Positions 178 to 37,418 are shown, counted from the stretch's first letter. The stretch is DNA of 64,000 nt from Escherichia coli (GCF_013122565.1 NZ_CP053258.1); one strand, 5' to 3'. Made by a program: numbers and translations. The notes: a model not told the origin generated them from the letters alone.

Positions 178-533
178 ATCCGCTCCGTCGTTATGGTTAT
201 AAAAACGTGACGAATATACCTACATTGGAGTAACAAATGATCCTACATAGATCACATTACATATGATAATTCACCCTTTATTGATCTGGATTAATTTAGA
301 AGTTGTATTGAAAATCCTGGTTAATGTGATTTAAATCAATTTTTAAATATTTTCGCTACGCAAATATTAACTCGCTCGCCACTTGCCGCGGTTCGCCCAC
401 GCCTGAAGGCCAGCAATTACCTCCGCTTTACAAAGATATGCTTTTCCATACAAGACCTGATGCTGCCACCCGAGGCTTAACCAGGGTACAATTGCCCGCT
501 AATTAACACCTGCATAAAACTCAAGGAGAGTGC

Positions 534-12279: not shown

Positions 12280-13911
12280 TTAGTGCTTCACAATGTACAT
12301 ATTCCGGGTGTAGGTATTATCCAGCGGATCTTTGCCGGTATAGCCACCAACCCACGGTTTCACCAGACGCGCATTCACGTAGTAATAAACAGGAACAATG
12401 GCCGAATCCTTATCCAGCTGTTGTTCTGCTTTAGTGTACAGAGCTGTGCGCTGCGCCTCGTCAGTCACTTTCAGCGTTTCCGCCATAATGCTGTCAAAGG
12501 CCGGGCTCTTATAATGCGCGGTATTCATCGAGCTGTTCGACAGCATGGTGTTCAGGAAGGAAGTTGGTTCGTTATAGTCTGCACACCAGCCTGCACGGGC
12601 CACATCAAAAGTGCCCTGATGACGGGTGTCGAGGAACGTTTTCCACTCCTGGTTAACCAGTTTGACGTTTACACCAATGTTTTTCTTCCACAATGAAGAG
12701 GCAGCAATCGCCAGCTTTTTATGCAGATCGGAGGTGTTATACAACAGGTTGATGGTCAACGGTTTGTCTGCGGTATAACCCGCTTCAGCCAGCAGTTTTT
12801 TTGCTTCTTCGTTACGTTTTTCCTGGCTCCAGCCAAACCATTCCGGCTGAGTCAATTTTGCGCCATCAGTATACGGTGGAGTGTAACCATAGGCGGGCAT
12901 GTCGCCCTGTGCTTTCACTTTATTAACAATGATATCGCGGTCCATACCCAGTTTCAGTGCGGTACGCACACGCACATCGTTGAATGGCGGTTTCTGGTTG
13001 TTAATTTCGTAATAGTAAGTGCACAGGTATGGATCAACGTGAACTTCGTCCGGGATCTCTTTTTTCAGCTTCTGGAACAATTCGATCGGCATATTGTTAT
13101 ACGTCATGTCGATTTCACCACTACGGTAGCGGTTGACATCAGTAACTTCAGAAGCAATAGGCAAATAGGTTACCTGGTTAATAACGGTTTTCGCGTTGTT
13201 CCAGTAGGTCGGGCTGCGTTCAAGAACGATTCGTTCGTTTACGACCCAATCTTTTAAGGTATAGGCACCGTTGGTGACGATATTACCAGGCTGGGTCCAT
13301 TTTTCGCCGAATTTCTCGATAGCGGCTTTTGGCACCGGTGAAGTTGATGGGTGAACAAGTAATTTATAGAAGTACGGAACGGGTTCACTTAAGGTGACTT
13401 CTAATGTGTGATCATCAATAGCTTTCACGCCGAGATCGGTAATCGGTTTTTTCCCTTCAAGAATTTCATCAATACCGGCGATATGCCCATATTGCAGATA
13501 ACTGGCATACGGAGAAGCGGTGTTTGGATCAACAGAACGTTGCCAGCTATACACAAAGTCTTGTGCTGTGACTGGCGTGCCATCAGACCATTTCGCATCT
13601 TTACGCAAATGGAAGGTCCAGACTTTCGCGTCTTTATTATCCCAGGATTCAGCGACGCCAGGTGCCGGATGACCGTCAAGGTCGCTGACCAGTAAGCCTT
13701 CAAACAGGTCCCGGCTGATATTAGACTCCGGCACACCTTCAATTTTGTGCGGATCTAATGACTGAACTTCTGAACCATTGTTACGTACCAGCGTTTGTTT
13801 TTCCGCCAGTGTGACGCCTGCGGGTACATCAGCTGCCAGCGCGACATTCCCTGCCATTAGCGCAGCCAGAACGCCAGCTGCTACTAAACTTCTCTTGGTG
13901 ATGTTGGTCAT
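12280..13911 (-). CDS. oppA: Periplasmic oligopeptide-binding protein OppA (543-aa precursor)
   Basis: MTNITKRSLVAAGVLAALMAGNVALA signal peptide then family 5 solute-binding domain; track ORF extends 15 codons upstream. Confidence 0.95.
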   Translation of the reverse strand: MTNITKRSLVAAGVLAALMAGNVALAADVPAGVTLAEKQTLVRNNGSEVQSLDPHKIEGVPESNISRDLFEGLLVSDLDGHPAPGVAESWDNKDAKVWTFHLRKDAKWSDGTPVTAQDFVYSWQRSVDPNTASPYASYLQYGHIAGIDEILEGKKPITDLGVKAIDDHTLEVTLSEPVPYFYKLLVHPSTSPVPKAAIEKFGEKWTQPGNIVTNGAYTLKDWVVNERIVLERSPTYWNNAKTVINQVTYLPIASEVTDVNRYRSGEIDMTYNNMPIELFQKLKKEIPDEVHVDPYLCTYYYEINNQKPPFNDVRVRTALKLGMDRDIIVNKVKAQGDMPAYGYTPPYTDGAKLTQPEWFGWSQEKRNEEAKKLLAEAGYTADKPLTINLLYNTSDLHKKLAIAASSLWKKNIGVNVKLVNQEWKTFLDTRHQGTFDVARAGWCADYNEPTSFLNTMLSNSSMNTAHYKSPAFDSIMAETLKVTDEAQRTALYTKAEQQLDKDSAIVPVYYYVNARLVKPWVGGYTGKDPLDNTYTRNMYIVKH

Positions 13912-15295: not shown

Positions 15296-15772
15296 GGTTA
15301 GCTCCGAAGCAAAAGCCGGATAATGTTAGCCATAAATAAGGTTGAAAAGACGCGCTGACAATACGCCTTTTGACGGCATTTTTCACCTCCTAACTACTTA
15401 AAATTGCTATCATTCGTTATTGTTATCTGGTTGTGCAAAACATGCTAATGTAGCCACCAAATCATACTACAATTTATTAACTGTTAGCTATAATGGCGAA
15501 AAGCGATGCTGAAAGGTGTCAGCTTTGCAAAAATTTGATTTGGATCACGTAATAAGTACCCAGAAGTGAGTAATCTTGCTTACGCCACCAGGAAGTGACG
15601 CATTAGAGATAAATAGCTCTAATGTTTAAACTCTTTTAGTAAATCACAGCGAGTGTGAGCGCGAGTAAGCTTTTGATTTTCATTGGTTAAGCAAATCATC
15701 ACCGCACTGACTATACTCTCGTATTCGAGCAGATGATTTACTAAAAAAGTTTAACATTATCAGGAGAGCATT

Positions 15773-25266: not shown

Positions 25267-26109
25267 ATGCATTCACTCCAACGTAAAGTTCTGCGTACTA
25301 TTTGTCCGGACCAAAAAGGTCTGATCGCACGTATTACCAATATTTGCTACAAGCACGAGTTAAATATCGTACAGAACAATGAATTTGTTGATCACCGTAC
25401 CGGGCGCTTTTTTATGCGCACGGAACTGGAAGGGATTTTTAATGATTCCACCCTGCTGGCGGATCTCGATAGCGCATTGCCAGAAGGCTCCGTGCGTGAG
25501 CTGAATCCTGCCGGTCGTCGCCGGATAGTGATTCTGGTCACTAAAGAAGCGCATTGCCTTGGCGATTTGTTGATGAAAGCCAATTATGGCGGCCTGGATG
25601 TCGAAATCGCGGCAGTGATTGGTAACCACGATACTTTACGTTCTCTGGTTGAGCGTTTTGATATACCGTTTGAGCTGGTAAGCCATGAAGGGTTAAGCCG
25701 CAACGAGCACGATCAAAAGATGGCGGATGCCATTGATGCTTATCAACCTGACTACGTGGTGCTGGCGAAGTATATGCGGGTATTAACACCGGAATTTGTG
25801 TCACGCTTCCCGAATAAAATCATCAATATTCACCATTCCTTCCTGCCAGCGTTTATCGGCGCACGTCCTTATCACCAGGCCTATGAACGTGGCGTGAAGA
25901 TTATTGGCGCAACCGCTCACTATGTGAATGACAATCTGGACGAAGGCCCAATCATCATGCAGGACGTTATTCATGTCGATCATACCTACACAGCTGAAGA
26001 TATGATGCGCGCAGGTCGTGACGTCGAGAAAAACGTCTTAAGTCGTGCGCTTTACAAAGTACTGGCGCAGCGCGTCTTTGTTTACGGTAATCGCACGATT
26101 ATTCTTTAA
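25267..26109 (+). CDS. purU: Formyltetrahydrofolate deformylase PurU
   Basis: 280-aa ORF with N-terminal ACT domain and formyltransferase core. Confidence 0.95.
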   Translation: MHSLQRKVLRTICPDQKGLIARITNICYKHELNIVQNNEFVDHRTGRFFMRTELEGIFNDSTLLADLDSALPEGSVRELNPAGRRRIVILVTKEAHCLGDLLMKANYGGLDVEIAAVIGNHDTLRSLVERFDIPFELVSHEGLSRNEHDQKMADAIDAYQPDYVVLAKYMRVLTPEFVSRFPNKIINIHHSFLPAFIGARPYHQAYERGVKIIGATAHYVNDNLDEGPIIMQDVIHVDHTYTAEDMMRAGRDVEKNVLSRALYKVLAQRVFVYGNRTIIL

Positions 26110-28101: not shown

Positions 28102-29636
28102 GGATGCGGCTCCGTTTTGCTGGTCACATCGATGGCATCGATACGACGGCTGTTGAACAGATTGAATTTGGTATCTGAACCGTGGCAGCCATCACCAAAG
28201 GTAAAGCCGCAGCCATTTTTCTCCGGGAAGGCTTCCCGTGCCAGTTCACGATGACTACTCGGCACCACAAAGCGATCTTCGTAGTTAGCAATCGCCAGAT
28301 AACGGTACATCTCCTGTGCCTGGGCTTCGGTCAGACCGACCTCTTCCAGCGCACGGGTATCAACTTTACCGTCAACGGTTTCAGCACGTTTGTAATGACG
28401 CATCGCCAGCATACGTTTCAGCGCGCGCAGTACCGGTTTGGTATCACCGGCGGTCAGCAGATTCGCCAGATACTGTACCGGAATACGCAGGCTTTCGACG
28501 TCTGGCAGAATGCCGTTGCTGCCCAGCTCACCCGCATCTGCTGCAGACTGAATCGGAGACAGAGGCGGCACGTACCAGACCATCGGCAGTGTGCGATATT
28601 CTGGATGCAGCGGCAGCGCCAGTTTCCATTCCATTGCCATTTTATAAACCGGCGACTGCTGTGCGGCTTCAATAACGCTCAGCGGAATACCGTCTTTAAT
28701 CGCCTGCTCGATGACTTTCGGATCGTTCGGATCGAGGAACACGTCCAGCTGACGCTGGTAAAGATCTTTCTCGTTCTCGGTGCTGGCTGCACGTTCAATC
28801 GCGTCGGCATCGTATAACAGCACGCCGAGATAACGGATACGACCGACACAGGTTTCTGAGCACACGGTCGGCTGACCCGCTTCAATACGCGGATAGCAGA
28901 AGATGCACTTCTCAGACTTACCGCTCTTCCAGTTGAAGTAGATTTTTTTGTACGGGCATCCAGTGATGCACATACGCCAGCCACGGCATTTATCCTGGTC
29001 GATCAGGACGATGCCATCTTCTTCACGCTTGTAAATCGCACCGCTCGGGCAGGTCGCCACACATGCCGGGTTCAGGCAGTGTTCGCACAGGCGCGGCAAA
29101 TACATCATGAAGGTGTTTTCGAACTGGCTATACATCGCCTTCTGGATGTTGTCGAAGTTCTTGTCTTTCGCCAGTTTGTCAAACTCACCGCCCAGGTCAT
29201 CTTCCCAGTTCGGCCCTTTTTCGATTTTTGCCATCCGTTCGCCGGTAATCAGCGAACGCGGACGGGCAATCGGCTGCGCTTTGCTGCCTTCCGGCGCGGT
29301 ATGCAGGTTCTGATAATCAAAATCGAACGGCTCGTAATAATCGTCGATCCCCGGCAGATGCGGGTTAGCAAAGATTTTACCCAGCAGCATGGCTCGGTTA
29401 CCCATGCGCGGTTGCAGTTTGCCATTGATTTTACGGATCCAGCCGCCTTTGTATTTTTCCTGGTTTTCCCAGTCAGTCGGGAAGCCCTGGCCCGGCTTGG
29501 TTTCCACGTTGTTGAACCACGCGTATTCCACGCCTTCACGGCTGGTCCAGACGTTTTTACAGGTAACTGAACAGGTGTGGCAGCCGATGCACTTATCGAG
29601 ATTCAGCACCATGCCGACTTGTGAACGAATTTTCAT
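28098..29636 (-). CDS. narH: Respiratory nitrate reductase beta subunit (Fe-S) NarH
   Basis: 512-aa ORF with multiple CxxCxxCxxxC ferredoxin-type clusters. Confidence 0.97.
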   Translation of the reverse strand: MKIRSQVGMVLNLDKCIGCHTCSVTCKNVWTSREGVEYAWFNNVETKPGQGFPTDWENQEKYKGGWIRKINGKLQPRMGNRAMLLGKIFANPHLPGIDDYYEPFDFDYQNLHTAPEGSKAQPIARPRSLITGERMAKIEKGPNWEDDLGGEFDKLAKDKNFDNIQKAMYSQFENTFMMYLPRLCEHCLNPACVATCPSGAIYKREEDGIVLIDQDKCRGWRMCITGCPYKKIYFNWKSGKSEKCIFCYPRIEAGQPTVCSETCVGRIRYLGVLLYDADAIERAASTENEKDLYQRQLDVFLDPNDPKVIEQAIKDGIPLSVIEAAQQSPVYKMAMEWKLALPLHPEYRTLPMVWYVPPLSPIQSAADAGELGSNGILPDVESLRIPVQYLANLLTAGDTKPVLRALKRMLAMRHYKRAETVDGKVDTRALEEVGLTEAQAQEMYRYLAIANYEDRFVVPSSHRELAREAFPEKNGCGFTFGDGCHGSDTKFNLFNSRRIDAIDVTSKTEPHP

Positions 29637-32600
29637 TTTACGCTCTCCTGTACCTGGTCATTGCCTTCGCCATCTAACCAGTCAATGTTCTTCATCTTAC
29701 GCACTACAACAAACTCATCGCGGTTAGAACCTACGGTGCCGTAGTAGTTAAAGCCGTATGCCAGATGGGCATAGCCGCCGATCATATGCGTCGGTTTCGG
29801 CGTGATACGGGTGACCGAGTTATGGATACCACCACGCTGTTGGGTAATTTCCGAACCAGGCAGGTTAACGATACGTTCCTGCGCGTGGTACATCATGGTC
29901 ATCCCTGCCGGAACACGCTGGCTGACAACCGCACGGGCAGTCAGAGCACCGTTGCTGTTGAATACTTCAATCCAGTCGTTATCGGCGATACCCAGATCTT
30001 TGGCATCGGCTTCACTCAACCAGACCACCGGACCACCGCGACCTAAAGTTAGCATCAGCAGGTTGTCGCTGTAGGTGGAGTGGATACCCCACTTCTGGTG
30101 CGGCGTCAGGAAGTTGAGCGCTTTTTCCGGGTTGCCGTTGGATTTCTGGCCCATCACTTCTTTCACCGAACGGGTGTCGATCGGCGGACGATAAACCAGC
30201 AAGCTTTCACCGAAATCACGCATCCACTGGTGATCCTGATACAGTTGCTGACGGCCCGAGAGCGTACGCCACGGGATCAGCTCGTGAACGTTGGTGTAAC
30301 CGGCGTTGTAAGAAACGTGTTCATCTTCAAGGCCAGACCAGGTCGGGCTGGAGATAATTTTGCGCGGCTGTGCCTGAATATCGCGGAAGCGAATCTTCTC
30401 GTCTTCTTTATTCAGCGCCAGATGCGTATGGTCACGACCGGTAAACTCGCTCAGGGCAGCCCAGGCTTTCACGGCTACCTGACCGTTGGTTTCCGGTGCC
30501 AGCGTCAGGATCATGTCTGCCGCATCAATTGCGGTGTTCAGCATGGGCTGGCCTTTTGCCGGACCTTCCGCTTTGGTGTAGTTGAGCTTACGCAGCAGAT
30601 CCATCTCGCTCTGGGTGTTCCAGGCAATCCCTTTACCGCCATTACCTATTTTCTCCATCAGCGGGCCGATAGAGGTAAAGCGTTCGTAAGTCGCCGGATA
30701 ATCGCGCTCTACGACCATAATGTGTGGCGCGGTTTTACCTGGGATCAGGTCGCACTCGCCTTTTTTCCAGTCTTTCACATCCAGCGGCTGCGCCAGTTCA
30801 GCGGCAGAGTCGTGCTGGATAGGCAGCGTGACGATGTCGGTTTCTTTACCCAGATGACCGACGCACACTTCGGAGAATTTCCTGGCAATGGCTTTGTAGA
30901 TTTCCCAGTCGCTTTTCGCTTCCCAGGCCGGATCGACCGCCGCAGACAGCGGGTGAATAAACGGATGCATATCCGAAGTATTCATGTCGTCTTTTTCGTA
31001 CCAGGTCGCCGTCGGCAAAATGATGTCGGAATAGAGACAGGTGCTCGACAGACGGAAGTCCAGCGTCACCACCAGATCCAGCTTGCCTTCCAAACCATTG
31101 TCCTGCCAGTCCACTTCTTCCGGCTTCACGCCGCCCTGCTGCCCCAGATCTTTACCCTGGATACCGTGCTCCGTCCCCAGCAGGTACTTGAGCATAAACT
31201 CATGACCTTTACCGGAAGAACCGAGCAGGTTAGAACGCCAGATGAACAGGTTGCGCGGGTGGTTTTTACCGTTTTCTGGTTGTTCTGCCGCAAAACGGAT
31301 GGAACCCTCTTTCAGGGATTTCACCGTATAGTCCACCGGATTCATCCCGGCTTTTTCCGCTTCTCCAGCGATAGTCAGCGGGTTAGTGCCTAACTGCGGT
31401 GCAGACGGCAGCCAGCCCATGCGTTCTGCACGGACGTTAAAGTCGATCAGGTGTCCGGTATAACGGGATTTATCCGCCATCGGCGACAGCAACTCTTCCG
31501 CAGTCACGGTTTCATAACGCCACTGGCTGGAGTGGTTATAGAAATAAGAAGTGCTGTTCATGTGACGCGCCGGACGCTGCCAGTCAAGGGCAAACGCCAG
31601 CGGCTGCCAGCCGGTTTGCGGACGCAGTTTTTCCTGACCTACATAGTGCGCCCAGCCGCCCCCGCTCTGACCGACACAGCCGCAGAAAATCAGCATGTTG
31701 ATCAGACCACGATAGTTCATATCGAGGTGATACCAGTGGTTCAGCCCCGCACCGACGATAATCATCGAACGACCGTGCGTTTTATCAGCGTTATCGGCAA
31801 ATTCACGGGCGATGCGAATAATCTGGCTGCGAGAAACGCCGGTAATCTGCTCGGCCCAGGCCGGGGTATAAGCTTTCACATCGTCATAGCTGGTTGCACA
31901 GTTAACGTCGTTCAGGCCACGTTCCAGACCATAGTTTGCCAGCGTCAGATCATAAACGGTGGTCACCAGGGCGGTGCTGCCATCAGCCAGTTGCAGGCGT
32001 TTAACCGGCAGTTTGTGTAGCAGAATGTTTTCCAGTTCCACTTTGTTGAAGTGTTCCGTGCCGTCGCCACCAAAGTACGGGAAGCCCACCTCAGCGATCT
32101 CATCCTGGCTACCCAGCAGGCTCAGTTGCAGCTCGGTTTCTTCGCCAGTTTTGCCGTCGCGCTGCTCAAGATTCCATTTGCCCTTCTCGCCCCAGCGGAA
32201 GCCAATAGAACCGTTCGGCGCAACCATTTCGCCATTGGTATTAAAGGCGACAGTTTTCCATTCCGGATTGTTTTCCTGGCCCAGCGCATCAACCAGATCA
32301 GCTGCGCGCAGCATACGACCTGCAGCGTAGTAACCGTCGCGTTCTTCCAGCATCACCAGCATCGGCATGTCGGTATAGCGACGCACATAGTCGGTGAAAT
32401 ACTGGCTTGGGTTGTCGAGGTGGAATTCACGCAGCATTACGTGGCCCATCGCCAGCGCCATTGCCGCATCGGTGCCTTGTTTTGGGGCCAGCCATAGATC
32501 GCACAGTTTGGCGATTTCAGCGTAGTCTGGTGTGACGGCAACAGTCTTGGTGCCTTTGTAACGCACTTCAGTAAAGAAGTGAGCATCCGGGGTTCGCGTC

Positions 32601-33376
32601 TGCGGCACGTTTGAACCCCAGGCGATGATGTAGCTGGAGTTGTACCAGTCAGCAGATTCCGGTACGTCAGTTTGCTCGCCCCAGGTTTGCGGAGACGCAG
32701 GAGGCAGGTCGCAGTACCAGTCGTAGAAGCTTAAGCAAGTACCGCCAATCAGCGAGAGATAGCGCGCACCCGACGCGTAAGAAACCATCGACATTGCCGG
32801 AATTGGCGAGAAACCAGCGACACGGTCCGGGCCGTAGTTTTTGATGGTGTAAACGTTAGATGCGGCGATCAGTTCGTTCACTTCCTGCCAGGAAGAACGA
32901 ACAAAACCACCGCGTCCACGCGCCTGCTTAAAGCTTTTCGCTTTATCGGCGTCTTCAATGATAGAAGCCCATGCCTCAACCGGATCGCTATGCAGCGCCT
33001 TCGCTTCACGCCACATTTTCATCAGGCGTTTGCGCATCATCGGGTATTTCAGGCGGTTGGCACTGTAAAGATACCAGGAGTAGCTGGCACCGCGCGGGCA
33101 GCCGCGAGGTTCATGGTTTGGCAGATCCGGACGGGTACGCGGATAGTCAGTCTGCTGGGTTTCCCAGGTGACCAGACCGTTTTTGACGTAGATTTTCCAG
33201 CTGCAGGAGCCGGTGCAGTTTACCCCGTGGGTAGAGCGGACGATTTTGTCATGCTGCCAACGCTGGCGATATCCATCCTCCCAGTCACGGTTGGTATTGA
33301 GAAGCTGGCCATGCCCATCGGCAAAGGTTTCACCCTTCTGTTTGAAGTAGCGAAACCGGTCCAGGAATTTACTCAT
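29633..33376 (-). CDS. narG: Respiratory nitrate reductase alpha subunit NarG
   Basis: 1247-aa ORF MSKFLDRFRYFKQKGETFADGHGQ, molybdopterin oxidoreductase. Confidence 0.98.
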   Translation of the reverse strand: MSKFLDRFRYFKQKGETFADGHGQLLNTNRDWEDGYRQRWQHDKIVRSTHGVNCTGSCSWKIYVKNGLVTWETQQTDYPRTRPDLPNHEPRGCPRGASYSWYLYSANRLKYPMMRKRLMKMWREAKALHSDPVEAWASIIEDADKAKSFKQARGRGGFVRSSWQEVNELIAASNVYTIKNYGPDRVAGFSPIPAMSMVSYASGARYLSLIGGTCLSFYDWYCDLPPASPQTWGEQTDVPESADWYNSSYIIAWGSNVPQTRTPDAHFFTEVRYKGTKTVAVTPDYAEIAKLCDLWLAPKQGTDAAMALAMGHVMLREFHLDNPSQYFTDYVRRYTDMPMLVMLEERDGYYAAGRMLRAADLVDALGQENNPEWKTVAFNTNGEMVAPNGSIGFRWGEKGKWNLEQRDGKTGEETELQLSLLGSQDEIAEVGFPYFGGDGTEHFNKVELENILLHKLPVKRLQLADGSTALVTTVYDLTLANYGLERGLNDVNCATSYDDVKAYTPAWAEQITGVSRSQIIRIAREFADNADKTHGRSMIIVGAGLNHWYHLDMNYRGLINMLIFCGCVGQSGGGWAHYVGQEKLRPQTGWQPLAFALDWQRPARHMNSTSYFYNHSSQWRYETVTAEELLSPMADKSRYTGHLIDFNVRAERMGWLPSAPQLGTNPLTIAGEAEKAGMNPVDYTVKSLKEGSIRFAAEQPENGKNHPRNLFIWRSNLLGSSGKGHEFMLKYLLGTEHGIQGKDLGQQGGVKPEEVDWQDNGLEGKLDLVVTLDFRLSSTCLYSDIILPTATWYEKDDMNTSDMHPFIHPLSAAVDPAWEAKSDWEIYKAIARKFSEVCVGHLGKETDIVTLPIQHDSAAELAQPLDVKDWKKGECDLIPGKTAPHIMVVERDYPATYERFTSIGPLMEKIGNGGKGIAWNTQSEMDLLRKLNYTKAEGPAKGQPMLNTAIDAADMILTLAPETNGQVAVKAWAALSEFTGRDHTHLALNKEDEKIRFRDIQAQPRKIISSPTWSGLEDEHVSYNAGYTNVHELIPWRTLSGRQQLYQDHQWMRDFGESLLVYRPPIDTRSVKEVMGQKSNGNPEKALNFLTPHQKWGIHSTYSDNLLMLTLGRGGPVVWLSEADAKDLGIADNDWIEVFNSNGALTARAVVSQRVPAGMTMMYHAQERIVNLPGSEITQQRGGIHNSVTRITPKPTHMIGGYAHLAYGFNYYGTVGSNRDEFVVVRKMKNIDWLDGEGNDQVQESVK

Positions 33377-33467
33377 CGGTTTTCTCCTGTGGGAGCCTGT
33401 CGGCCCTCTGATAAATCGACATTGCTAATGTTTAAGGGCAAGGTAACGCTCTGAAACAGCGTGGGAA

Positions 33468-33481
33468 TTGATAACGATCAA
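33468..33481. promoter_or_regulatory. FNR box (TTGAT-N4-ATCAA) in the narG promoter
   Basis: Perfect ttgataacgatcaa about 90 bp upstream of the narG start codon. Confidence 0.8.
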
Positions 33482-33891
33482 GAGTGATGGGGATGAAAAA
33501 TAAAGTAAATTCCTAAGATACCCCTTTAGGATAATTAACAGCCACAACATAACAGACTGTAAATTAAGACATTTTATACCTGTAGTTATTTAAACTATTG
33601 AGATTTTTATGCAGATGGGTATTAAGGAGTATTCCCCATGGGTAACATATTAATGGCTCTTAATGAAATCCGGCGAAATAAACCATATAACATTAGTATG
33701 TTGTAACTAAATAACGCATAAAAAAAGCGCGACATCATGCCGCGCAAAGGATAATCAAATATTTTACTCTATATAATTCGGTTTACAGGAAGGCGGCAAG
33801 TGAATGAATCCCAGGAGCTTACTAAAGTAAGTGACTGGGGTGAATGAACGCAGCCGCAGCACATGTAACCCGAAGTATGACGAGTAACGGT

Positions 33892-35283
33892 TTATTTTTT
33901 AGAATGCCGACCATATACCGCCCAGGTAATCACTACGCAGGCGATATAGAAAATCAAAAATACCTTCATTGCGCCGACTGGCGAACCCGTTAATGCCAGC
34001 GAGCTACCAAACGCTTTCGGGATAAAGAAGCCACCAATCGCGCCAATCGCAGAGATGAAACCCAGCGCCGCCGCCGTGTCGGTTGCCGCTTCACGCATCG
34101 CACGTTCGTCAGAACCCCCTTCTGCTTTCACGCGATCCATTGTCAGTTTACGGAAGATCACTGAAATCATCTGGAAAGTGGAACCACTACCCAGCCCAGC
34201 TGTCAGGAACAGCGCCAGGAAGACCGCGAAGAACGCCATGAAGCTTCCGCCCTGCCCGTCAGTCGGTAAGGTCAGGAACAGCAGGCCGCTGAAAATCGCC
34301 ATCAGAATAAAGTTCACCAGCGTGACACGAGTTCCGCCCAGACGGTCAGATAATGCACCACCTGCAGAACGCGCCAGCGCACCAATAAACGGCCCGAAGA
34401 AAGCGTATTGCAGAATCTGAACATCCGGGAACTGCGTTTTTGACAGCATCGCAAAGCCCGCGGAGAAGCCGATAAAGGAGCCGAAGGTTGCCAGATACAG
34501 CAGGCTCATAATCCACAGATGACCCCGTTTGAGTACCGGCAACTGCTCCTTGATGGAGGCTTTCGAGGTAGCAAGATCGTTCATGCCAAACCACGCCGCA
34601 ATGGTGAAGATGGCAAGGAACGGCACCCATATCCAGGACGCATTCGCCAGATACAGCTCAGTCCCATCCGGCTGTTTGACGCCCTGGCTACCAAATACTG
34701 CGAAAATCGACAGTGATACCACCAGCGGAGCAACCAACTGCATGACGCTGACGCCCATATTTCCCAGACCACCATTCAGACCCAGCGCGCCACCCTGCTT
34801 CTGTTTCGGAAAGAAGAAGCTGATGTTTGCCATACTGGATGCGAAGTTCGCGCCAGCAAAGCCGCACAGCAGAGAGATGATGATGAAGACGCTATAAGGC
34901 GTGGAGGTATCCTGCACGGCAAAACCCAGCCAGACGCAAGGAATAATCAGAATACCGGTGCTGAACGCCGTCCAGCGACGACCACCGAAGATAGGAACCA
35001 TAAAAGAGTATGGAACACGTAATAACGCGCCAGAAACCGAAGGCAGCGCAGTCAACATAAATAGCTGATCGGTCGTAAAATTAAAACCGACTTTCGGTAA
35101 GTTCACCGCAACAGCGCTGAACAACATCCATACGCAAAACGCCAGCAGCAGACAGGGAACGGAAATCCACAGGTTGCGGCTGGCAATACGTTGACCGCGT
35201 TGTTGCCAGAACGCAGGATCTTCCGGTCGCCAATCTGTAATGACAGCTCCAGTAGCCCTTTCGGGGGCGGATGAGTGACTCAT
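33892..35283 (-). CDS. narK: Nitrate/nitrite antiporter NarK (MFS, 463 aa)
   Basis: MSHSSAPERATGAVITDWRPEDPAFWQ, 12-TM MFS; track ORF starts 2 codons upstream. Confidence 0.96.
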   Translation of the reverse strand: MSHSSAPERATGAVITDWRPEDPAFWQQRGQRIASRNLWISVPCLLLAFCVWMLFSAVAVNLPKVGFNFTTDQLFMLTALPSVSGALLRVPYSFMVPIFGGRRWTAFSTGILIIPCVWLGFAVQDTSTPYSVFIIISLLCGFAGANFASSMANISFFFPKQKQGGALGLNGGLGNMGVSVMQLVAPLVVSLSIFAVFGSQGVKQPDGTELYLANASWIWVPFLAIFTIAAWFGMNDLATSKASIKEQLPVLKRGHLWIMSLLYLATFGSFIGFSAGFAMLSKTQFPDVQILQYAFFGPFIGALARSAGGALSDRLGGTRVTLVNFILMAIFSGLLFLTLPTDGQGGSFMAFFAVFLALFLTAGLGSGSTFQMISVIFRKLTMDRVKAEGGSDERAMREAATDTAAALGFISAIGAIGGFFIPKAFGSSLALTGSPVGAMKVFLIFYIACVVITWAVYGRHSKK

Positions 35284-35342
35284 AGACACCTCTGATACTC
35301 GTTTCGATGTCTGCCACCTTAGTGTCTGTAGCTAAAGGCAAT

Positions 35343-35356
35343 TTGATGTAAATCAA
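35343..35356. promoter_or_regulatory. FNR box 1 of narK promoter (TTGAT-GTAA-ATCAA)
   Basis: Perfect inverted repeat tttgatgtaaatcaaa ~65 bp upstream of the narK start. Confidence 0.8.
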
Positions 35357-35380
35357 ACGATAAGATAACTTTATCTATCA

Positions 35381-35394
35381 TTGATATTTATCAT
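35381..35394. promoter_or_regulatory. FNR box 2 of narK promoter (TTGAT-ATTT-ATCAT)
   Basis: Near-consensus site centred 38 bp upstream of box 1, the spacing expected for tandem -41.5/-79.5 FNR sites. Confidence 0.7.
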
Positions 35395-35621
35395 TACCCA
35401 TAGTGAGTACAGTGATTTCATAAAAATTATGAGATTTTTCACGGTGCTGTAAAATCCCTACCCTTACCGATGTAAAGCGACTAACCACACGGCAAATAAG
35501 GAGTAACTCTTTCCGGGTATGGGTATACTTCAGCCAATAGCCGAGAATACTGCCATTCCAGAATGCATCGTCACATTCATTAAGGTTATTGCTCATTTAA
35601 AGCCTGAAGGAAGAGGTTTAC

Positions 35622-37418
35622 ATGCTTAAACGTTGTCTCTCTCCGCTCACCCTGGTTAATCAGGTTGCGCTTATTGTGTTGCTTTCTACTGCTATTGGAC
35701 TGGCAGGGATGGCGGTTTCTGGCTGGCTGGTGCAAGGCGTTCAGGGCAGCGCCCATGCGATCAACAAAGCGGGATCGCTGCGCATGCAAAGTTACCGTCT
35801 GTTGGCGGCAGTGCCATTAAGCGAGAAAGACAAACCCTTAATTAAAGAGATGGAACAAACGGCATTTAGCGCCGAGTTGACTCGAGCAGCAGAACGAGAC
35901 GGACAACTGGCGCAATTACAGGGTTTACAAGATTACTGGCGTAATGAACTGATCCCTGCGCTGATACGTGCACAAAACCGCGAAACGGTGTCAGCGGATG
36001 TCAGCCAGTTTGTTGCCGGGCTTGATCAGCTGGTATCTGGTTTTGACCGCACCACGGAAATGCGCATTGAGACAGTGGTACTAGTCCATCGGGTAATGGC
36101 GGTATTTATGGCACTTTTACTGGTGTTCACTATTATTTGGTTGCGGGCGCGACTGCTACAACCGTGGCGGCAACTGCTGGCAATGGCGAGTGCCGTCAGC
36201 CATCGCGATTTTACCCAACGCGCGAACATCAGCGGGCGCAACGAAATGGCGATGCTTGGAACTGCATTGAACAATATGTCTGCAGAACTGGCCGAAAGTT
36301 ATGCCGTACTTGAGCAGCGGGTTCAGGAGAAAACCGCCGGGCTGGAGCATAAAAATCAGATCCTCTCTTTTTTATGGCAGGCCAACCGCCGATTGCATTC
36401 CCGCGCCCCGCTGTGTGAACGCCTGTCACCTGTACTCAACGGCTTACAGAATTTAACCCTGCTACGTGATATCGAACTGCGGGTGTATGACACTGATGAT
36501 GAAGAGAATCATCAGGAGTTTACCTGCCAGCCAGATATGACTTGTGATGATAAAGGCTGCCAGCTCTGCCCGCGCGGCGTATTACCCGTTGGTGATCGCG
36601 GCACGACCCTGAAGTGGCGGCTGGCTGACTCTCATACGCAGTACGGTATTTTGCTGGCGACCCTGCCGCAGGGGCGTCATCTTAGCCATGATCAACAACA
36701 ACTGGTGGATACCCTGGTTGAACAACTCACCGCCACGCTGGCGCTGGATCGCCATCAGGAACGTCAGCAACAGTTGATCGTGATGGAAGAGCGTGCCACC
36801 ATTGCGCGCGAACTGCATGATTCTATTGCCCAATCTCTCTCTTGCATGAAGATGCAGGTGAGTTGTTTACAGATGCAGGGCGATGCGCTGCCAGAAAGCA
36901 GCCGCGAACTGTTAAGTCAGATCCGTAACGAACTGAATGCATCCTGGGCGCAGTTGCGTGAATTGCTCACCACATTCCGCTTGCAGCTCACCGAGCCTGG
37001 ATTACGTCCGGCGCTGGAGGCGAGTTGCGAAGAGTACAGCGCCAAATTTGGCTTCCCGGTGAAGCTGGATTATCAATTGCCGCCTCGCCTGGTGCCTTCG
37101 CATCAGGCAATCCACTTGTTGCAAATTGCCCGTGAGGCATTAAGTAACGCCCTCAAACATTCGCAAGCGAGTGAAGTCGTGGTGACGGTGGCGCAAAACG
37201 ATAATCAGGTCAAACTGACCGTCCAGGATAACGGCTGCGGCGTGCCTGAAAATGCCATCCGCAGCAATCACTACGGCATGATAATAATGCGCGACCGTGC
37301 GCAAAGTTTACGAGGCGATTGCCGCGTCCGCCGTCGTGAATCAGGTGGCACCGAAGTGGTGGTCACCTTTATTCCCGAAAAAACTTTCACAGACGTCCAA
37401 GGAGATACCCATGAGTAA
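35622..37418 (+). CDS. narX: Nitrate/nitrite sensor histidine kinase NarX
   Basis: 598-aa ORF with two TM helices flanking a periplasmic domain, HAMP, and HisKA_3/HATPase ([11 protein letters not shown]). Confidence 0.97.

Follow-up and report, generated by a model that had tools for sequence, protein, structure and literature searches.

The 515-bp interval at positions 33377..33891 of the window, a 64,000-nt stretch of the Escherichia coli chromosome, is the intergenic region between narK and narG, and it holds the control region of narG within a composite architecture comprised of FNR, NarL and IHF sites, the replication terminator TerD, the end of the small RNA NarS and an ERIC-like insertion. 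The probability of this reading, identity and architecture taken together, is put at about 97%, and nothing was found that contradicts the assignment to the narG control region. Both genes lie on the minus strand. The open reading frame of narG, encoding nitrate reductase A (29633..33376, start codon ATG at 33374..33376), was located from the list of open reading frames and from the RefSeq annotation of matching E. coli loci; narK (33892..35289) was located from the same list, and narX begins beyond it at 35622 on the plus strand. When a 661-bp segment spanning the region was used as query, 5,412 of the 5,426 complete E. coli genomes aligned to 80% or more of its length, and the top matches, annotated as narK and narG, were 99.4-99.5% identical. 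This identity and the published sites bear out the preliminary description of the region, which had regarded it as an instance of established narG regulation and not as novel. In E. coli P276M (NZ_CP044293.1) an IS1 element lies inside the stretch matched by the query, which was recovered in two pieces with the IS1 transposase between them.

The intergenic length in MG1655 is likewise 515 bp. Pairwise alignment of the spacer with that of MG1655 revealed four SNPs, at 33713 (position 23 of the Ter site), 33600 (-167), 33571 (-138) and 33546 (-113). The FNR box and the NarL heptamers contain none of the four, and those at 33571 and 33546 flank the IHF core. The G+C content of the spacer is 39% compared with 49.6% for the window, and falls to 30% in 33500..33720. 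Coordinates of K-12 were obtained as 1313240 minus the window coordinate, and sites reported for U00096.2 were mapped with the offset of +777 between the genome versions. The positions, sequences and spacing of the regulatory sites, their conservation across genera and their identity with the footprinted and ChIP-positive sites of K-12 were observed directly in the present analysis and are given below.

The transcription start of narG was fixed independently. The full-length narG promoter has been defined as -223 to +70 (Hothersall et al. 2022, PMC9314961), and the primers narGup223 and narGDown start at window positions 33656 and 33364, so that both published ends place +1 at 33433 on the minus strand with a 5' UTR of 57 nt (33377..33433). 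An anaerobic sigma70 ChIP-seq peak of K-12 (PMC3688515) maps to ~33438, ~5 bp from this +1. Counted from +1, the -10 hexamer TACCTT (33440..33445, minus strand) occupies -12..-7, and the -10 element GTTACCTT is kept across genera. The perfect TTGAT-N4-ATCAA box TTGATAACGATCAA, which reads TTGATCGTTATCAA in the narG sense, lies at 33468..33481. Its centre at 33474.5 is at -41.5 and precedes the narG ATG (33376) by 98 bp. The site overlaps the -35 region, as class II geometry asks, and has the inverted repeat of an FNR site.

The strength of the box was evaluated with a weight matrix built from 61 ChIP-positive sites other than narG and narK, taken from Table S6 of Myers et al. 2013 (PMC3688515). 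The box scored 14.85 bits, ranking 6th among 63,987 positions, and was the sole site in the spacer above 7.1 bits. The 64 kb contain three perfect TTGAT-N4-ATCAA boxes compared with 0.21 expected from shuffles; the two others are the known site of the narK promoter (35343..35356) and a site internal to purU (25733..25746) that is silent by ChIP in K-12. Further strong sites of the FNR type in the window, all present in the K-12 tables, are two at ompW (281..339) and one at adhE/ychE (15535..15548). The FNR sequence of narG is identical in K-12, where it is found at U00096.2 1278982 under an FNR ChIP-seq peak (PMC3688515), a position that maps to window 33481..33468, and narGHJI is listed as activated by FNR in K-12 (Myers et al. 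2013, PMC3688515, Tables S5, S6 and S8). The preliminary description had placed the perfect box at these coordinates and had judged its distance to be that of a class II promoter; both the placing and the distance proved correct, and the weight-matrix scan that it had recommended put no FNR site elsewhere in the spacer. The box is assigned as the FNR site of a class II promoter, at which FNR binding and the resulting expression in this strain would be those described in the K-12 literature. Myers et al. 2013 also report an anaerobic H-NS ChIP-chip region at U00096.2 1278987-1279463, corresponding to window ~33000..33476, which takes in the core promoter of narG and ~380 bp from the beginning of the gene.

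Relatives were surveyed in the genomes of species representatives by one scan for a degenerate pattern covering narG codons 1-12, which yielded 120 loci. The conservation profile was computed from the 73 loci, representing 33 genera, in which narG has its own FNR box, and was anchored on that box. A TTGAT-N4-RTCAA box was present 93-127 bp from the ATG in 73 of 73 spacers with an internal narG promoter (33 genera); the distance in relatives is mostly 93-102 bp, and in Vibrio 109-111 bp. The profiles of the 73 loci peaked sharply at -195, -185 and -98/-89 and, for IHF, at -123, with background frequencies of 0.1-1.8% according to motif, strand and tolerance. In Proteus, Providencia, Morganella, Moellerella, most Pantoea, Erwinia and Yersinia, the spacer between narK and narG measures 50-101 bp and is devoid of an FNR box or NarL heptamers (loci L017, L020, L038, L043, L046, L050, L054, L058, L063, L065, L078, L086, L093, L096, L107 and L109). 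In these short-spacer genera narG probably depends on the narK promoter and is co-transcribed with narK.

The spacer contains four exact TACYYMT heptamers compared with 0.35 expected (Poisson P = 4.5e-4). A lone heptamer is not significant, given that 43 occur in the window against 33 expected. The heptamer TACCCCT (33519..33525, plus strand) is centred at -89, and the distal block at 33615..33644 contains three heptamers on the minus strand: TACCCAT (33638..33644, centre -208), TACTCCT (33625..33631, centre -195) and a second TACCCAT (33615..33621, centre -185). The 7-2-7 inverted pair of heptamers is typical of many NarL targets and dispensable at narG. A degenerate partner of the -89 heptamer, TTATCCT (33528..33534, minus strand), forms with it a poor 7-2-7 site centred at -93.5, and the best 7-2-7 16-mer in the spacer, TACCCCTTTAGGATAA, carries two mismatches, consistent with the reported absence of 7-2-7 sites from narG (PMC4549865). 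Footprints of phospho-NarL at narG have been published with high affinity at -89 and lower affinity at -195 (PMC4549865), and TACYYMT heptamers are present in both footprinted regions, as in a NarL-activated promoter. The preliminary description had recognized TACCCCT as a NarL heptamer ~45 bp upstream of the FNR box; the distance is 47.5 bp from centre to centre and the heptamer coincides with the published -89 footprint, so that the comparison with footprints which it had advised is in agreement at both -89 and -195. The distal NarL sites that it had invoked do exist, at -185, -195 and -208, and their positions, which it had not given, are those listed above.

The heptamer positions differ in how closely they are kept. 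On the sense strand, the -195 heptamer was exact in 49 of the 73 loci and had at most one mismatch in 61, while the -185 heptamer was exact in 7 and within one mismatch in 38. At -98, 9 bp upstream of the -89 heptamer, a heptamer on the sense strand with at most one mismatch was found in 34 of 73 loci. The -89 heptamer on the antisense strand was exact in 13 and within one mismatch in 37, with its GGTA core kept, and other genera come nearer to a 7-2-7 arrangement at -93.5 than does E. coli. The distance from the -195 heptamer to the centre of the FNR box is a rigid 153.5 bp, Vibrio included. The -195 heptamer is therefore the most constrained NarL element over the 33 genera, and the -89 heptamer is more variable.

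The idea that box and heptamer arose by coincidence in an AT-rich intergenic sequence and have no regulatory role, which might draw on the commonness of single heptamers and on the perfect FNR box inside purU, one of three in the window and without a ChIP signal in K-12, has virtually no standing and is already refuted by ChIP data and conservation, since the same K-12 sequence lies under an FNR ChIP-seq peak, the distances of -41.5 and -89 from a +1 that was itself fixed independently are exact, box and heptamer recur at fixed offsets across 33 genera, and the footprints are published (PMC4549865).

Between the distal NarL block and the promoter lies an IHF-type core, TTACAGTCTGTTA (33550..33562, minus strand), centred at -123 with an A-tract upstream. 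The E. coli core has three mismatches to the consensus WATCAANNNNTTR, matching it at 6 of the 9 specified positions, and was for that reason missed by a window scan allowing up to two mismatches; it surfaced through the cross-genus profile, in which WATCAANNNNTTR with no more than two mismatches was present on the sense strand at -123 in 57 of 73 loci and 23 of 33 genera against a background of 1.3%. The hits that the window scan did return, at -135, -161/-164, -216 and elsewhere, were rejected as none was conserved. A published summary of narG sites lists NarL at -190, IHF at -125 and Fnr at -41 (PMC4682653). A text search of the IHF ChIP-chip data of Myers et al. (PMC3688515), obtained anaerobically and free of nitrate, returned no entry starting 12786-12790, the U00096.2 range of the spacer, a result that is not conclusive. 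The core near -123 is a conserved candidate IHF site predicted from its sequence and its position. The FNR box, the -195 heptamer at 153.5 bp and the IHF core at -123 are the most constrained of the classical parts.

Occupancy of these sites and the mechanism of activation in this strain can be drawn from the literature. In the absence of oxygen, FNR would bind the box at -41.5 and recruit RNA polymerase as a class II activator, according to established work. In the presence of nitrate, phospho-NarL would be expected to bind the heptamers around -89 and around -195, and IHF near -125 would bend the AT-rich DNA between the two NarL regions, allowing distal NarL to act on the promoter.

The spacer as a whole is longer than this control region. 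Read in the direction of narG, it is comprised of the 3' UTR of narK with the ERIC-like insertion, the NarS seed and the terminator, followed by TerD, the activating region, the core promoter and the leader. The upstream activating region of narG extends from approximately -211 to -35, and the classical control region ends at approximately -223, equivalent to window 33656. The upstream ~235 bp (33657..33891), nearly half of the spacer, are occupied by TerD, the narK terminator with the 3' end of NarS, and the ERIC-like insertion. The published fragments that represent the full-length narG promoter end at -223 or -236 (PMC9314961, PMC4549865).

The 3' UTR of narK is narS as annotated in MG1655 (b4813, 184 nt); the corresponding sequence at 33720..33903 on the minus strand, known from RefSeq, was identical here by pairwise alignment. 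NarS was described in Salmonella as an Hfq-dependent sRNA that is processed by RNase E from the narK 3' UTR and represses nirC (Wang et al. 2020, PMC7038943). The intrinsic terminator shared by narK and NarS (33720..33745, minus strand) is composed of a stem at 33745..33727 and a T-run at 33726..33720; the terminator scan returned 8 pairs, 6 of them G-C, a loop of 3 and a run of seven T, and the terminator is conserved across genera. Immediately upstream lies the single-stranded stretch TTGATTATCCTTT (33746..33758, minus strand), identified as the NarS seed region by its conservation and in agreement with the published description of NarS (PMC7038943). This stretch, which contains TTGATTATCC, is kept in Escherichia, Salmonella, Citrobacter, Enterobacter and Kosakonia and is not kept in Klebsiella and Kluyvera. 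A scan of 33000..36000 against Rfam revealed nothing at threshold and no family for the NarS region; the sole hit of note, the ERIC-like insertion against V_AS5, was below the gathering cutoff. For K-12, Myers et al. 2013 (PMC3688515) reported a strong sigma70 ChIP-seq peak, recorded under anaerobiosis, at U00096.2 1278711, equivalent to window ~33752; it falls in the same part of the narK 3' UTR, after the ERIC-like insertion and ahead of the NarS terminator. The height of this peak is 1242 compared with 437 at the narG promoter. A perfect TATAAT is present at 33772..33777 on the plus strand, antisense to narK, without a good -35 element.

Directly after the narK stop codon lies an insertion of 122 bp (33770..33891, boundaries accurate to a few bp) that forms an imperfect palindrome and resembles an ERIC/IRU element. 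The ERIC/IRU repeat is an imperfect palindrome of ~127 bp with many copies per genome. The centre of the insertion matches, with few mismatches, the sequences of the ERIC1R and ERIC2 primers. An insertion is noted in the paper describing NarS (PMC7038943). E. albertii and two divergent species representatives labelled 'E. coli' lack the 122 bp and have spacers of 392-393 bp. Within 1 Mb of local DNA, homologues were found only at the same site in Citrobacter and once elsewhere (locus L051). In several Citrobacter species (loci L002, L040, L049, L072 and L119) the homologue occupies this position in reverse orientation, suggesting that the Citrobacter and E. coli elements are independent insertions at a preferred site.

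Downstream of the terminator, in the direction of narG, lies the 23-bp Tus-binding replication terminator TerD, CATTAGTATGTTGTAACTAAATA (33691..33713, plus strand). The Ter core has been defined by its conserved positions 6 and 8-18 (PMC8347550). The core AGTATGTTGTAACTAA at 33695..33710 matches AGNATGTTGTAACTAA with no mismatch and with G6 intact, and no second match occurred in the 64 kb, even at a tolerance of two mismatches. For the TerDF and TerDR primers of a published ChIP-qPCR assay (Toft et al. 2021, PMC8707476 supplement), the matching positions are 33717..33741, over the narK terminator, and 33617..33641, over the distal NarL heptamers. Since these published TerD primers flank the 23-mer, the site is TerD. 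The single difference from MG1655, at position 23, is outside the conserved core. Coordinate mapping revealed that Ter position 1 and G6 are on the narG side, and the non-permissive face is therefore directed to narG and the permissive face to the narK terminator. TerD starts 6 bp after the T-run of that terminator and is located ~47 bp upstream of the -208 heptamer. Among related spacers, 46 carry the 14-mer AGTTACAACATACT (33708..33695 in the narG sense) unchanged and a further 6 carry it with one mismatch, both flanks varying freely. The Ter core follows the T-run by 10-12 bp in ~50 genomes in which the intervening bases are variable, and it is missing from Vibrio, Pantoea, Mixta and Buttiauxella and from some Cedecea, Pluralibacter and Raoultella.

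Other assignments of the conserved 14-mer were considered and dropped. A binding site for a transcription factor (ArcA, OmpR, NikR, ModE, NorR or an extra NarL heptamer at -262) was rejected on finding that the reverse complement of AGTTACAACATACT is the Ter core, and a promoter or a small ORF was rejected once the Ter core was recognized and confirmed by the published TerD primers. A full-text literature search gave no match to the TerD sequence string and, among the papers searched, none linking TerD with narG.

These elements bear on whether the entire 515-bp spacer is one extended narG enhancer, the length of which is required for DNA looping. Such an enhancer is highly improbable. The spacer is indeed AT-rich, with 39% G+C, and a conserved block does exist as far upstream as -258 to -280. 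However, that block is TerD, the narK terminator takes up the 26 bp that follow (33720..33745), the 122-bp ERIC-like insertion is missing from the closest sister species with the promoter architecture otherwise the same, and fragments beginning at -223 or -236 are treated as full-length in the literature. The spacer holds a replication terminator, the 3' end of an sRNA and a mobile repeat, and its length is therefore not creditable to the promoter. DNA bending accounts for approximately -100 to -180 only and not for the full length. The preliminary description had explained the long AT-rich spacer by the need for bending between distal NarL sites and the promoter, an explanation that stands for this interval, where IHF is placed at -123/-125, and fails for the upstream ~235 bp of TerD, terminator with NarS, and ERIC-like insertion. 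For annotation in general, the result is a caution that a long AT-rich stretch ahead of a regulated gene can contain several functional elements with no relation to one another.

Within the composite reading, Tus at TerD and the narK terminator could be a functional unit that couples replication termination with expression of nitrate respiration genes. In one version the terminator would shield TerD from narK transcription reaching the permissive face, and in the other a Tus roadblock would help termination of narK or affect the action of distal NarL. Mohanty, Sahoo and Bastia reportedly found in 1996 that transcription entering Ter from the permissive side abolishes fork arrest, a finding in favour of such a unit, as are the near-constant spacing of 10-12 bp between core and T-run in ~50 genomes with the bases between them free, the location of TerD ~47 bp upstream of the -208 heptamer, and the membership of TerD in the set of just six Ter sites (TerA-E and TerG) to which Tus binds in vivo. 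Against it, classical constructs ending at -223, which are devoid of TerD, are fully regulated (PMC9314961), and the constant spacing could reflect shared ancestry of a short region between two constrained elements. On balance, a functional coupling of this kind is rather unlikely.

At the opposite end of the spacer, the 57-nt leader of narG is highly conserved. The Shine-Dalgarno sequence AGGAG (33384..33388, minus strand) is kept, with few exceptions, across 106 distinct narG leaders. Just upstream of it the sequence GGGCC-GACA-GGCTC (33393..33406, minus strand) could form a hairpin. Different stem sequences occur at the same place in different genera, and folding of each sequence gave a median z of -0.9, weak compared with shuffles. 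RNAalifold applied to 20 diverse leaders gave no consensus structure, the alignment being out of register.

Further upstream, the motif AGCAATGTCG (33417..33426, minus strand; +8..+17) is a perfect 10-nt complement of nt 37-46 of RyhB, the sequence of which was taken from MG1655, and is a candidate pairing site facing the RyhB segment CGACAUUGCU. Its core GCAATGT was present at most 120 nt from the narG ATG in 95 of 117 loci compared with 0.013 expected per locus, and was found also in the short-spacer genera that are devoid of an internal narG promoter. With full-length RyhB and the narG leader, RNAduplex gave -38.3 compared with -34.4 ± 4.8 for shuffles, 20% of which were as good. In ribosome profiling with RyhB, narG was repressed and was classed as a previously predicted target (PMC4666370), and another study put forward narGHJI and narK as new candidate targets of RyhB in anaerobic growth (PMC4676285). 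narG is missing from the RyhB targets listed in a 2021 review, and validation of the pairing by compensatory mutation was not found in the papers searched. The candidate motif fits the published hints of RyhB pairing.

In a further, joint reading, the terminator and TerD would form a module in which the terminator keeps strong narK transcription from stripping Tus, or in which Tus aids formation of the narK and NarS 3' ends or influences distal NarL, and AGCAAUGUCG in the leader would be a direct RyhB site tying nitrate reductase to the supply of iron. This combination is offered tentatively, as a doubtful proposition.

The narG control region is textbook material, among the best-characterised of co-activated bacterial promoters and already known, and all of the elements of the spacer have been described previously. 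What was unstated in the papers searched is modest: that terminator and TerD stay together in synteny across many genera, and how deeply the leader motif complementary to RyhB is conserved. The rediscovery of this promoter is a positive control for recognizing FNR and NarL sites from sequence alone and for judging novelty correctly.

Geissmann and Touati reportedly showed in 2004 that RyhB pairs at sodB with AGCAAUGUC, around the start codon of that gene. In the narG leader, AGCAAUGUCG is complementary to this RyhB core, nt 37-46. The sodB site covers the start codon, whereas the narG motif is 41-50 nt upstream of the start codon and its interaction is predicted or a candidate in the literature. 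The ERIC-like insertion is similar to ERIC/IRU elements in being an imperfect palindrome of ~120 bp in a transcribed intergenic region, and differs in that its Rfam match is below threshold and to V_AS5, a Vibrio family. In comparison with NarS of Salmonella (PMC7038943), the region here agrees in place, in terminator and in the conserved stretch that precedes it; the Salmonella locus is without the insertion after the narK stop codon, in contrast to E. coli which has it. The orientation of TerD agrees with arrest of the anticlockwise fork, the function reported for the TerA/D/E/I/H cluster to which TerD belongs. Finally, compared with the narGHJI promoter of K-12, a class II FNR promoter co-activated by NarL and IHF, the FNR box, the -10 element, the four exact NarL heptamers and +1 are all identical here.
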